From the IMG/VR virus record IMGVR_UViG_2627853771_000003: DNA of 48,551 bases; one strand, given 5' to 3'. The notes under the pieces were generated by a model. The model did not search any database, was not told the DNA's origin, and saw only the letters and a list, made by a program, of their open reading frames with translations. Each line of letters opens with the position of its first letter. Positions within the stretch are counted from its first letter, which is position 1. This DNA is from a virus. Its lineage: Duplodnaviria; Heunggongvirae; Uroviricota; Caudoviricetes. This document shows positions 22,736 through 27,375 of the stretch, in pieces. The position numbers and the translations under genes are program-made.

Positions 22736-23215
22736 ATGGGTTTTTCATCAGCCCGAAATTTGGGAAGGGACATATCGGCAGGATTTTCCCCACCACGTCG
22801 CATGCCGATTTCGGAGGCTGTTAAAAAATTCATGCGTGTTCCCAAGGGGGCTGGTAACTCGGTGCCATGGGATCCTGAACTGACACCCTACATCATTGAG
22901 CCCATGAACTGCCTGGCATCGCGTGAATACGATGCGGTGATTTTTGTTGGTCCTGCGCGAACAGGGAAGACCATTGGTCTGATCGATGGATGGATTGTCT
23001 ATACCATCGTTTGCGATCCTTCGGACATGCTCGTTGTGCAGATGACCGAAGATAAGGCCCGCGAGCATTCAAAAAAGCGCCTCGACAGAACGTTCAGAAG
23101 CAGTGCGGCGGTAAAGAAAAGAATGAGTCCACGTCGTAATGACAATAATGTCCATGATAAGACGTTCAGGGATGGCTCGTTCCTTAAAATTGGTTGGCCC
23201 TCGGTCAACATTATG
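22736..23215 (+). pseudogene. terminase large subunit, N-terminal 160 codons, interrupted by an IS66-family element
   Basis: The frame enters the IS at 23216 and stops after 8 foreign codons. Rejoining to 25756 restores a continuous ORF of about 699 aa (...GWPSVNIM|SSSDYRFVAL...). Confidence 0.85.
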
Positions 23216-23245
23216 GTAAGCGTCAACGGAGCACCGTATTGACGC

Positions 23246-24859
23246 TTATTTATTGGTGAGTACTACGTTCCATGGCAGGAGTTCATCAACTCGGTTGGAA
23301 GGCCATTCCGGCAGTACGCTCAGGATATGGCGCAGATACGCTTCCGGATCGATACCGTTCAGACGGCAGGTGCCGATCAGCCCGTACAACAGTGCTCCAC
23401 GCTCGCCGCCGTGATCGCTGCCAAAGAACATAAAGTTTTTCTTTCCGAGACAGACTGCACGAAGCGCTCTTTCCGCAGCATTATTATCCGCCTCCGCCAG
23501 ACCGTCATCACTGTAATAACAGAGGGCATCCCACTGATTCAGTACATAGCTGAACGCTTCGCCCAGTCTGGATTTTTTCGACAGCGTACCATTCTTCTCC
23601 ACCATCCATTCATGCAGCGACGTCAGTAACACTTTGCTTCGCTGCTGCCTGACGGCAAGACGCTCTGACTCCGGTAATCCCCGTATTTCATCCTCGATGG
23701 CGTACAGTTCACTGATTCGCTTCAGTGCTTCTTCTGCCGTCGCACTTTTGCTGCTGATGTATACATCGTGGATTTTTCGCCGGGCATGGGCCCAGCACGC
23801 AACTTCTGTCAGTGCACCACCTTCACGTTCTGCACTGAACAACCTGTCGTAACCTGTGAACGCATCCGCCTGCAGGATACCCCGGAAGGGGCGGAGGTGT
23901 TGCTCCGGGTGTTTCCCCTGCCGGTTCGGCGAGTACGCGAACCAGACCGCTGGAGGAGATGACGAACCCACATTGCGATCATCCCGGACATACGTCCAGA
24001 TACGCCCTGTTTTCGCCTTTTTCTGACCCGGTGCCAGTACCTTTACCGGTGTGTCATCAGTGTGAATCTTGCGGGTGTTCATTACATAACGGTACAGGGC
24101 ATCATTCACCGGTGTCATTAACTGGCAGCACGCGTCAACCCAGTTGGAGAGTAAGGCCCGGCTCAGTTCGACACCCTGGCGGGCAAAGATTTCACTCTGA
24201 CGATACAGTGGCAGATGTTCGCAGTATTTTCCCGTTAACACGCGGGCAAGTAATCCGGGGCCCGCGATACCACGCTCTATCGGGCGGGACGGCGCCGGTG
24301 CTTCAACAATACAGTCACATTTTGTACAGGCTTTTTTTACCCGTTCTGTGCGGATCACTTTCAGGGCACTGCTCACCAGTTCCAGCTGTTCAGCGCTGAC
24401 TTCCCCCAGATAATCCAGCTTACCGCCACACTCCGGGCAACAGCTTTCTTCTGGCTCCAGGCGGTGTATTTCACGGGGAAGGTGTGCCGGTAACGGACGA
24501 CGATGGCGCGACTGTCGCAACTGGCGGGGAACCTGAGGATCGTCTTCCCGCCCACTGTAACGATCGCTGTCCTGTTCACGTTGTTTCAGCAGAGCCTCAG
24601 CCAGTTCAACTTCACGACGCAGTTTTTCAGAACGGGTACCGAACAGCATCCGGCGCAGTTTTTCTATCTGAGCCCGCAGATGTTCTATTTCCCGTTCATC
24701 TTCTTCGATCTTTTCTTCGGCACGTGTCAGTGCAGAGCGCAGGAAGGCTTCCGTCTCTTCAACCAGACTCAGTTGCTGGTCTTTCTGACGGAGGGCTTCA
24801 GCCTGCTCAGAGAGCAACCTTTCCAGCTCTGCGATGCGAATGAGGTATTTCTGACTCAT
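23246..24859 (-). CDS. IS66-family transposase (TnpC)
   Basis: 537 aa, coiled-coil N-terminus, zinc-ribbon CCPECGG, DDE region. Confidence 0.85.
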   Translation of the reverse strand: MSQKYLIRIAELERLLSEQAEALRQKDQQLSLVEETEAFLRSALTRAEEKIEEDEREIEHLRAQIEKLRRMLFGTRSEKLRREVELAEALLKQREQDSDRYSGREDDPQVPRQLRQSRHRRPLPAHLPREIHRLEPEESCCPECGGKLDYLGEVSAEQLELVSSALKVIRTERVKKACTKCDCIVEAPAPSRPIERGIAGPGLLARVLTGKYCEHLPLYRQSEIFARQGVELSRALLSNWVDACCQLMTPVNDALYRYVMNTRKIHTDDTPVKVLAPGQKKAKTGRIWTYVRDDRNVGSSSPPAVWFAYSPNRQGKHPEQHLRPFRGILQADAFTGYDRLFSAEREGGALTEVACWAHARRKIHDVYISSKSATAEEALKRISELYAIEDEIRGLPESERLAVRQQRSKVLLTSLHEWMVEKNGTLSKKSRLGEAFSYVLNQWDALCYYSDDGLAEADNNAAERALRAVCLGKKNFMFFGSDHGGERGALLYGLIGTCRLNGIDPEAYLRHILSVLPEWPSNRVDELLPWNVVLTNK

Positions 24860-24889
24860 GACCGTTTTTATAATGCGGTCAGGAGTTTT

Positions 24890-25240
24890 TTACAACATTG
24901 TCAGTGAGTTACGGCTGGATGTTTTTGGCTGACGCCAGTCCAGCTTATCGAGGAGCATTGCCAGTTGCGAGCGGGTAATGGATACCTTGCCGTCACGTAC
25001 CGCAGGCCAGATAAACTGGCCTTCCTCCAGGCGTTTGGTGAACAGGCACAGACCATCAGCATCAGCCCAAAGAATTTTGACGGTGTCACCCCGTCGGCCA
25101 CGGAAGATAAACAGGTGACCGGAGAAGGGATTATCATTCAGCACATGTTGTACCTGTTCTCCCAGTCCGTTGAAGGATTTACGCATATCGGTAACGCCGG
25201 CAACGAGCCAGATACGGGTACCTGATGGGAGTGAGATCAT
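24890..25240 (-). CDS. IS66 Orf2 (TnpB-like accessory protein)
   Basis: 116 aa, overlaps orf1 by 4 nt. Confidence 0.8.
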   Translation of the reverse strand: MISLPSGTRIWLVAGVTDMRKSFNGLGEQVQHVLNDNPFSGHLFIFRGRRGDTVKILWADADGLCLFTKRLEEGQFIWPAVRDGKVSITRSQLAMLLDKLDWRQPKTSSRNSLTML

Positions 25241-25662
25241 CTTCCCCTCCCGGTCAGTTCACGGATCAACACTGTGAGCAGCTCTGGCGATGGATTTTCC
25301 AGCGTCATGTTACCGTGACGGAATTCCACCTTGCAGGAACTGGCACTGACTCTGGTCTGAGTGGAAGTGGATAAAGACGGCGCAATGGCCGCCACAGGTT
25401 CTTTCTGCTCATCCGGCGTTATTTCTACAGGTAATAATTCAACGCCAGTGTCAGAAGAGGTCGTTACCGGAAGACGCCGCGAAACACGCCCTTCGTTCTG
25501 CCAGAGCCTGAGCCATTTGAAAATAACATTATCATTGACGCCATTTTCACGTGCAATCTGTGCAACACAAGCTCCAGGTTGTGATGCCAGTTCCACCATA
25601 CGAAGTTTGAATTCATTCGAATAGTTTTTACGAGGTTCTTTTCGCCAGTCCTGTAATTCCAT
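25237..25662 (-). CDS. IS66 Orf1 (TnpA-like HTH accessory protein)
   Basis: 141 aa, first ORF of the IS66 operon. Confidence 0.8.
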   Translation of the reverse strand: MELQDWRKEPRKNYSNEFKLRMVELASQPGACVAQIARENGVNDNVIFKWLRLWQNEGRVSRRLPVTTSSDTGVELLPVEITPDEQKEPVAAIAPSLSTSTQTRVSASSCKVEFRHGNMTLENPSPELLTVLIRELTGRGR

Positions 25663-25755
25663 ACTTAGATGTCCGTCTATATCAGATGGGCGTCTAAGTT
25701 ACCAATTCTCGTCTGATGGCTACATACGGCGGTCAGTTTACGCTTACACATTATG

Positions 25756-27375
25756 TCGTCGTCGGATTACCGGTTTGTCGCCTTAACCGATTACGACCGT
25801 TTTCCGGAGAATATCGACAGCGAGGGTGATGGTTTCTCCCTGGCCTCAAAACGTACCACCACATTTATGTCCGCCGGGATGACTCTGGTGGAGAGCTCGC
25901 CGGGACGTGACATCTGCGACAGCAAATGGCGACGTAAGTCGCCTCATGAAGCGCCACCGACGACTGGTATTCTTTCCCTTTACAATCGTGGTGACCGCCG
26001 CCGCTGGTACTGGCCATGTCCGCACTGCGGTGAATATTTTCAGCCAGCCATGGATGCCATGACCGGCTACCGTAATGAACCGGATCCCTTTAAAGCCAGT
26101 GAGGCGGCATATCTACTTTGCCCGCACTGCAGCGGCATTATCACGGCGGAGAAAAAGCGTGAGCTCAATAGTGCAGGAGTCTGGTTGCGTGAAGGTCAGG
26201 TCATTGATTGTAACGGCAACGTTTCCAGTGAACCGCGCCGCTCCCGTATCGCCAGTTTCTGGATGGAAGGGCCAGCTGCTGCGTATCAGACCTGGGCGCA
26301 ACTGGTTTACAAATTACTGACTGCAGAACAGGAGTATGAAGCGACAGGAAGTGAAGAAACACTCAGGGCGGTTATCAACACCGACTGGGGATTACCTTAT
26401 CTTCCCCGCGCCAGCATGGAGCAACGAAAAAGTGAACTGCTTGAGCAGCGGGCAGAGCCAGTTCCTTCCCGCAGTGTGCCGGATGGCGTTAATTTTCTTG
26501 TGGCGACAGTGGATGTGCAGGCGGGACGTCATCGCCGTTTTGTGGTTCAGGTAACGGGCTATGGCAGCCGTGGCGAACGCTGGATTATTGATCGTTACAA
26601 CATCACGCAGTCATTGCGCGGTGACAGCGACGGGGAGAGCCAGCGAATTGATCCGGCCAGCTATCCGGAAGACTGGGATGTCCTGCTGACGGATGTTTTT
26701 CATAAAAGCTGGCCGCTGGCCTCCGATCCTTCTCAACAAATGCGACTGATGGCAATGGCGGTGGACTCCGGCGGTGAAGACGGGGTCACTGATAATGCCT
26801 ATAAATTCTGGCGTCGTTGCCGTCGTGATGGCCTTGGTAAACGTATTTACCTGTTTAAGGGCGACAGCATCCGGCGCGCAAAACTGATCACCCGTACATT
26901 CCCTGATAACACCGGACGAACGGGCCGACGGGCGCAGGCCGCAGGTGATGTGCCGCTCTGGCTTCTTCAGACGGATGCACTGAAAGACCGGGTGAATAAC
27001 GCGTTATGGCGTGACTCGCCAGGTCCCGGCTATGTGCATTTCCCTGACTGGCTGGGGAGCTGGTTTTACGACGAACTGACGTATGAAGAGCGGAGCAGTG
27101 ACGGGAAATGGAGTAAGCCGGGTCGCGGTGCCAACGAAGCTTTTGACCTGATGGTGTATGCCGAGGCTCTGGTCATTCTGCATGGATACGAAAAGATCCG
27201 CTGGCCGGATGCACCGGAGTGGGCGAGCCGGGAAACCTGGCTGGAGTGTGTCCCGGACAGTACCGAACCGTCATCCTCACCGGAACCGGTATCCACGCCT
27301 GTTAAAAAACAAAAACGGAAGAAAACAGTAACTGACGATGTTAACCCCTGGCTGACTTCCGGAGGATGGTTATGA
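25756..27375 (+). pseudogene. terminase large subunit, C-terminal portion (displaced by the IS66 insertion)
   Basis: 539 codons in frame with 22736..23215 once the IS and one TSD copy are removed; stop overlaps the W start. Confidence 0.85.

Follow-up and report, generated by a model that had tools for sequence, protein, structure and literature searches.

We analysed the virus record IMGVR_UViG_2627853771_000003, a stretch of 48,551 nucleotides (the window) that, judged by its sequence, is a lambdoid prophage of Escherichia coli (E. coli). Our subject is its gene for the large terminase subunit, which lies on the plus strand in two parts, on either side of a complete insertion sequence (IS) identified as ISEc23, of the IS66 family. 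The 5' part of the gene (22736-23215) comprises codons 1-160, with the Walker A motif GPARTGKT at amino acids (aa) 72-79. The 3' part (25756-27375) comprises codons 161-699 and the stop codon, and encodes what remains of the ATPase domain, followed by the complete GpA nuclease domain. ISEc23 occupies 23216-25747, exactly 2532 bp, on the minus strand, with its genes antisense to the phage late operon. A copy of ACATTATG directly abuts it on each side, at 23208-23215 on the left and at 25748-25755 on the right, and the last three bases of the right copy form the Met160 codon. In all, 2540 bp (the IS and one duplicate) interrupt the terminase gene at codon 160. A sequence-only reading of the same DNA had proposed a 2532-bp IS66-type element with three open reading frames (ORFs) in the large terminase gene; its coordinates were reproduced, and the encoded proteins passed curated IS66 models.

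The largest gene of the element is tnpC (23246-24859, minus strand), which encodes an IS66-family DDE transposase of 537 aa recognised by both Pfam and NCBIfam. Its Pfam DDE_Tnp_IS66 domain scored 328.4 bits (cut-off 23.1) and was found together with zf-IS66, LZ_Tnp_IS66 and IS66_C domains, while the NCBIfam model transpos_IS66 gave 452 bits (cut-off 180). The gene tnpB (24890-25240, minus strand) encodes an IS66 accessory protein of 116 aa, with 125 bits to Pfam TnpB_IS66 and 120.9 bits to NCBIfam IS66_TnpB (cut-off 50). A second accessory protein, the 141-aa helix-turn-helix protein TnpA (25237-25662, minus strand), matched Pfam HTH_Tnp_1 and scored 83 bits with NCBIfam IS66_ISRel24_TnpA (cut-off 74). 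The genes are laid out as tnpA-tnpB-tnpC: the start of tnpB overlaps the end of tnpA by 4 nt, and a 30-nt gap precedes tnpC.

Elements of the IS66 family have imperfect terminal inverted repeats of about 20-30 bp, opening with 5'-GTAA. In the window, the tnpC end reads GTAAGCGTCAACGGAGCACCGTAT (23216-23239) and the tnpA end, in reverse complement, reads GTAAGCGTAAACTGACCGCCGTAT (25724-25747). A script check of these imperfect 24-bp repeats showed that both begin with GTAAGCGT (8/8 identical) and that 20/24 positions match, in agreement with the imperfect terminal repeats described earlier. All four features that define the family were found: a DDE TnpC, the three-gene layout, GTAA-type inverted repeats and an 8-bp duplication. 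This copy is probably still active; all three ORFs and both ends are intact, a state consistent with activity.

Over positions 1-2532 the element was 100.0% identical to many ISEc23 copies in complete E. coli genomes. The comparison was made with copies annotated by the Prokaryotic Genome Annotation Pipeline (PGAP) as "IS66-like element ISEc23 family transposase" (tnpA/tnpB plus a transposase gene), not with the ISfinder reference entry. A near-complete copy (at least 80%) was present in 2,488 of the 5,426 complete E. coli genomes, on chromosomes as well as plasmids. The element is multi-copy, and a single genome can contain as many as 47 places that match it. Its boundaries are fixed independently of the window by the copies in NZ_CP157152.1, NZ_LR881940.1 and two metagenome-bin/genome contigs, each of which is exactly 2532 bp long and has identical terminal 20 nt.

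The 8-bp duplication reported in the sequence-only reading was borne out, as the two copies of ACATTATG proved identical when compared. The probability that the two 8-nt stretches bordering an element agree by chance is approximately 1/65,536; a third ACATTATG, at 20557, is as expected by chance in 48.5 kb. Within the terminase gene the duplicated sequence spans the end of codon 158, codon 159 and Met160. Clean 8-bp duplications were also found at two other ISEc23 copies, where their sequences are unrelated (ATCCATCC in NZ_LR881940.1 and GTAAATAA in a contig copy).

To reconstruct the interrupted gene, the element and one duplicate were removed in silico. Joining 22736-23215 to 25756-27375 gave 2100 nt in frame, encoding 699 aa and a stop codon, as had been predicted for excision (an ORF of about 699 aa). 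The restored DNA differed by 1 nt (A952G, S318G) from an intact gene in NZ_CP145662.1 annotated as "phage terminase large subunit family protein", and it was at least 99% identical to sequence in 279 records. The existence of a near-identical intact allele means that the empty site exists in nature. The differing codon 318 (nt 952; window position ~26227), the sole difference from NZ_CP145662.1, falls in the segment that links the ATPase domain to the nuclease domain and encodes Ser in the window but Gly in both the NZ_CP145662.1 allele and phage cdtI. Ser318 may be a polymorphism or a change that followed the insertion.

The restored protein gave a single Pfam GpA_ATPase match at aa 40-303 (profile positions 2-247 of 247, 272 bits), which crosses the junction at Met160, and a GpA_nuclease match at aa 325-643 (profile positions 1-294 of 294, 290 bits). 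A PDB sequence search with the restored terminase gave no matches at E<=0.001, so collinearity was taken from Pfam and from phage homologues instead. The restored protein was 99.4% identical in aa to the large terminase of phage cdtI and collinear with it over 1-699 in one piece; the reconstructed ORF is thus colinear with intact homologues, a comparison on which the sequence-only reading had staked its claim. Other phage terminases also aligned in one piece, over ~84-100% of the length and with identities ranging from 71% down to ~24%. The ATPase domain, the nuclease domain and the position in the packaging module are all of the lambda gpA type, but the window holds no uninterrupted terminase polypeptide. 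The gene as it stands is a pseudogene of the lambda gpA-type large subunit family.

Both remnants of the gene retain open frames. The upstream ORF runs open to 23242 and joins residues 1-160 to eight IS-encoded residues (VSVNGAPY), giving a chimeric ORF of 168 aa. The downstream ORF (25753-27375; 540 aa) corresponds to residues 160-699 and opens with an ATG that coincides with the final 3 nt of the right-hand duplicate. This ATG had been described as an artificial start. It does lie within the duplicate, but it is the native in-frame Met160 codon, and no Shine-Dalgarno sequence was found in the 25 nt that precede it (GGCGGTCAGTTTACGCTTACACATT). The true terminase start, in contrast, is preceded by the Shine-Dalgarno sequence AGGAGG. 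An in-frame stop is located 13 codons upstream of the ATG at 25753. The downstream ORF had also been described as a C-terminal nuclease fragment, which is correct in that the nuclease domain is whole, but incomplete: the break at Met160 falls inside the GpA_ATPase domain, after Walker A, and the ORF also holds about half of that domain.

Because its ATG lacks a Shine-Dalgarno sequence, translation of the 540-aa ORF is doubtful and would be expected to be poor or absent. A consensus promoter/terminator scan detected no promoter-like site near the tnpA-proximal end of the IS that could drive the downstream ORF; overall, promoter-like sites were fewer than in shuffled controls. An exact-protein look-up of the 540-aa ORF found none on record, probably because alleles differ or because gene callers extend the gene to the ends of contigs.

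We looked for the same insertion elsewhere. It was absent, in its exact form, from the 5,426 complete E. coli genomes, and a left-junction scan of genome contigs gave 0 matches. Using the 168-aa chimeric ORF, which is unique to the junction, we found the same left junction in short-read contigs from at least two sequencing runs, in the Logan assemblies of SRR21847855 and SRR22802354, where both contigs end 29 nt inside the IS. When these contigs were compared with window positions 22013-23244, 10/1232 left-flank positions differed, and one contig diverged completely upstream of ~22000. A scan of genome contigs for the IS ends returned 6 loci, too few for a target-site logo. Exact ISEc23 ends were also seen on contigs binned as Lachnospiraceae, Segatella copri, Clostridia and Bacillota metagenome-assembled genomes; these contigs are most likely misbinned enterobacterial DNA rather than evidence of real IS transfer.

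Some matches that resembled the insertion in the window were rejected on inspection. NZ_LR881940.1 matched with 100% coverage, but the same parts stand there in another order, with the IS in the DUF1441 gene. A 72% match in UTAK-5 was found to have ISEc23 in a capsid-protease gene, beside a separately truncated terminase. In NZ_CP157152.1 (locus 6003-8534) an independent ISEc23 lies in the capsid-protease gene of a related prophage, antisense as in the window. Three packaging/head-module insertions in the same orientation are too few to show a bias.

The surroundings of the interrupted gene agree with a lambdoid prophage. The early region is Qin-like, with a recE-like exonuclease, dicB/ydfD-type genes, a DUF968 gene, Q and lysis genes. 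Once the IS is discounted, the module for packaging, head and tail (22004-44259) is collinear with positions 1-19724 of phage cdtI at ~94-99% nucleotide identity. All of the packaging, head and tail proteins of cdtI (19/19), and likewise those of the S1-INA-02-B prophage, aligned near full length in one frame. Directly upstream of the terminase lies an intact DUF1441 gene (22188-22727, plus strand; Pfam DUF1441, 151.7 bits), whose protein shares 100% aa identity with cdtI orf1, annotated there as a putative small terminase subunit. Downstream, a small gpW-like gene of 71 aa (27372-27584) is followed by the portal gene (27584-29092; Phage_portal_2). The terminase therefore stands where a packaging module would have it, with a small-subunit candidate upstream and a gpW-like gene, then a lambda-family portal, downstream.

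The portal gene has its stop at 29057-29059 (codon 492 of 502), 11 codons earlier than in cdtI and NZ_CP145662.1 (CAGTAG here, CATGAG there). We considered this early stop as a second lesion and rejected it, as several complete E. coli genomes contain an identical 221-bp stretch that is annotated there as portal protein. The early stop would seem to mark a natural allele that recurs, rather than damage particular to this prophage.

Two further elements were identified in the window. A complete IS2 (3476-4806, 1331 bp, genes on the minus strand) is flanked by the 5-bp duplication TACCG and was recognised by the NCBIfam models for IS2 TnpA and TnpB. By position relative to NZ_CP145662.1, it lies in or beside a ydfD-like gene of the early region. 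The 3-bp duplication ACT flanks a complete IS3 (14880-16137, 1258 bp, genes on the minus strand), which interrupts a gene of the YbgA family (with 2-thiouracil desulfurase and DUF1722 domains) in the late transcription unit, between the Q antiterminator and the lysis genes. The earlier description of a single clean insertion consequently holds for the terminase gene, of which ISEc23 is the only lesion, yet not for the prophage, into which IS2 and IS3 have also inserted.

Taken together, we put at roughly 95% the probability that a complete ISEc23 transposed into the lambda gpA-type large terminase gene of an E. coli lambdoid prophage and blocked that prophage's own packaging. The starting point is what is observed, namely the identity of the element, its boundaries, the duplication, the restored ORF and the empty site. 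In the sequence of events that we propose, the transposase would have made staggered cuts 8 bp apart at ACATTATG, and repair of these cuts would have duplicated the 8 bp. The break in the gene would thereby have fallen between Walker A and the remainder of the ATPase fold, leaving no full-length terminase, and without one the prophage should fail to cut cos and to package its own DNA. We infer this loss of packaging from the sequence, and the earlier statement that packaging is inactivated is sound on the same footing. The remaining genes for head and tail look intact, and because antiterminated late transcription may cross the antisense IS, the prophage may still produce heads, tails and lysis functions. 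The insertion would seem to be recent, as only one nucleotide separates the restored gene from an intact allele and none separates the IS from other copies.

Some points weigh against this account. One other ISEc23 copy was found with only 7/8 bases duplicated and one without any duplication; not every copy keeps a clean duplication, although that in the window does. Read-through of the IS, combined with the in-frame ATG, could allow some of the C-terminal fragment to be made. Finally, terminase could come in trans from a related prophage in the same cell, by analogy with a prophage considered below.

Repeats commonly lead to misassembly and ISEc23 is multi-copy, which raises the question of whether an assembler misplaced a repeated IS inside the terminase gene; that the exact insertion is missing from the complete genomes would fit such an artefact. 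A misjoin, however, would not yield a perfect 8-bp duplication, of the length typical of the family, exactly at both IS termini, and the same terminase/IS left junction recurs in the two independent Logan assemblies, so the chance of an artefact is next to negligible. It is also conceivable that the split terminase still works, with the 168-aa N-terminal and 540-aa C-terminal fragments both made and reassembling so that packaging is kept. Both fragments are open reading frames, the second opening at an in-frame ATG, and lambdoid late transcription is antiterminated (lambda Q) and could cross the IS. Retained function is nonetheless extremely improbable: the start at 25753 lacks the Shine-Dalgarno sequence that the true start possesses, the cut falls in the middle of one Pfam ATPase domain, and every terminase homologue among the matches listed is a single piece, none being naturally split.

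A different question is whether ACATTATG in the terminase gene is a preferred ISEc23 target that was hit more than once, the window and the Logan contigs then representing independent events. The Logan contigs share the exact junction despite their diverged left flanks, and two more independent ISEc23 insertions lie in the packaging/head region of related prophages in the same orientation; both observations speak for a preferred target. On the other hand, the five targets compared lack a consensus (ACATTATG, ATCCATCC, CGTGGTG, GTAAATAA and one copy without a duplication), 3/3 insertions in one orientation is not significant, and lambdoid prophages recombine freely, so that one insertion could come to sit in diverged flanks. 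Repeated insertion is unlikely on this evidence. We favour a single event, later shuffled by recombination, as the origin of the window and Logan junctions, because no target consensus was found among the five sites.

It is very unlikely that the insertion represents more than decay, either as a selected "lock" or as a preference of ISEc23 for the packaging module of this prophage family. If it were a lock, a useful prophage would be kept resident with its lysis, head and tail genes intact, and would be packaged only with a helper terminase, in the manner of a satellite-like hitcher. If it were a preference, the insertions in the large terminase, DUF1441 and capsid-protease genes in one orientation would fall under it, together with the terminase junction in two diverged flanks.

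The 168-aa and 540-aa ORFs should be annotated as a single terminase pseudogene that ISEc23 interrupts, in place of two genes, and the prophage should be classed as defective in packaging. With IS2 and IS3, the locus provides a small, clean example of IS-driven prophage decay and raises no new question. As it occurs in a few sequencing runs but in none of the 5,426 complete genomes, the exact allele could be used to mark a strain or lineage.

With regard to known systems, the element itself holds no novelty. ISEc23 is a named element reported from plasmids and chromosomes (PMC4398462), and PGAP annotates it in thousands of E. coli chromosomes and plasmids (e.g. EC958 and pEC958) with the same sequence, three genes and termini. 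The copy in the window shows no difference within the element and is particular only in its insertion site. Phage cdtI (AB285204.1), an inducible lambdoid prophage according to the title of Asakura et al. 2007 as cited in PMC5136569, provides the intact counterpart of the terminase (BAF63335.1), with the same gene order downstream. Unlike in the window, its terminase is uninterrupted, and the early region and cargo of cdtI (cdtABC, cif) are absent from the window. NZ_LR881940.1 carries a prophage of the same type, with the same packaging module and the same IS in the same orientation (locus 3235-5766), flanked by the clean 8-bp duplication already described. It differs in that ISEc23 sits in the DUF1441 gene, ~0.8 kb upstream, and the large terminase gene is intact.

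The closest parallel in consequence is Sp4 of E. coli O157:H7 Sakai, which is likewise a lambdoid prophage with its terminase knocked out by an IS and which forms part of a defective prophage pool (PMC2669165). In Sp4 the IS disrupts nu1, yet the DNA is still packaged, most likely by the terminase of Sp14 (PMC2669165). The two cases differ in that Sp4 was hit in the small subunit gene, and packaging of its DNA in trans by a sibling prophage has experimental support, whereas the prophage in the window was hit in the large subunit gene. Disruption by an IS is a known route of prophage decay, and the insertion of ISEc23 described here is an event of a kind already known.

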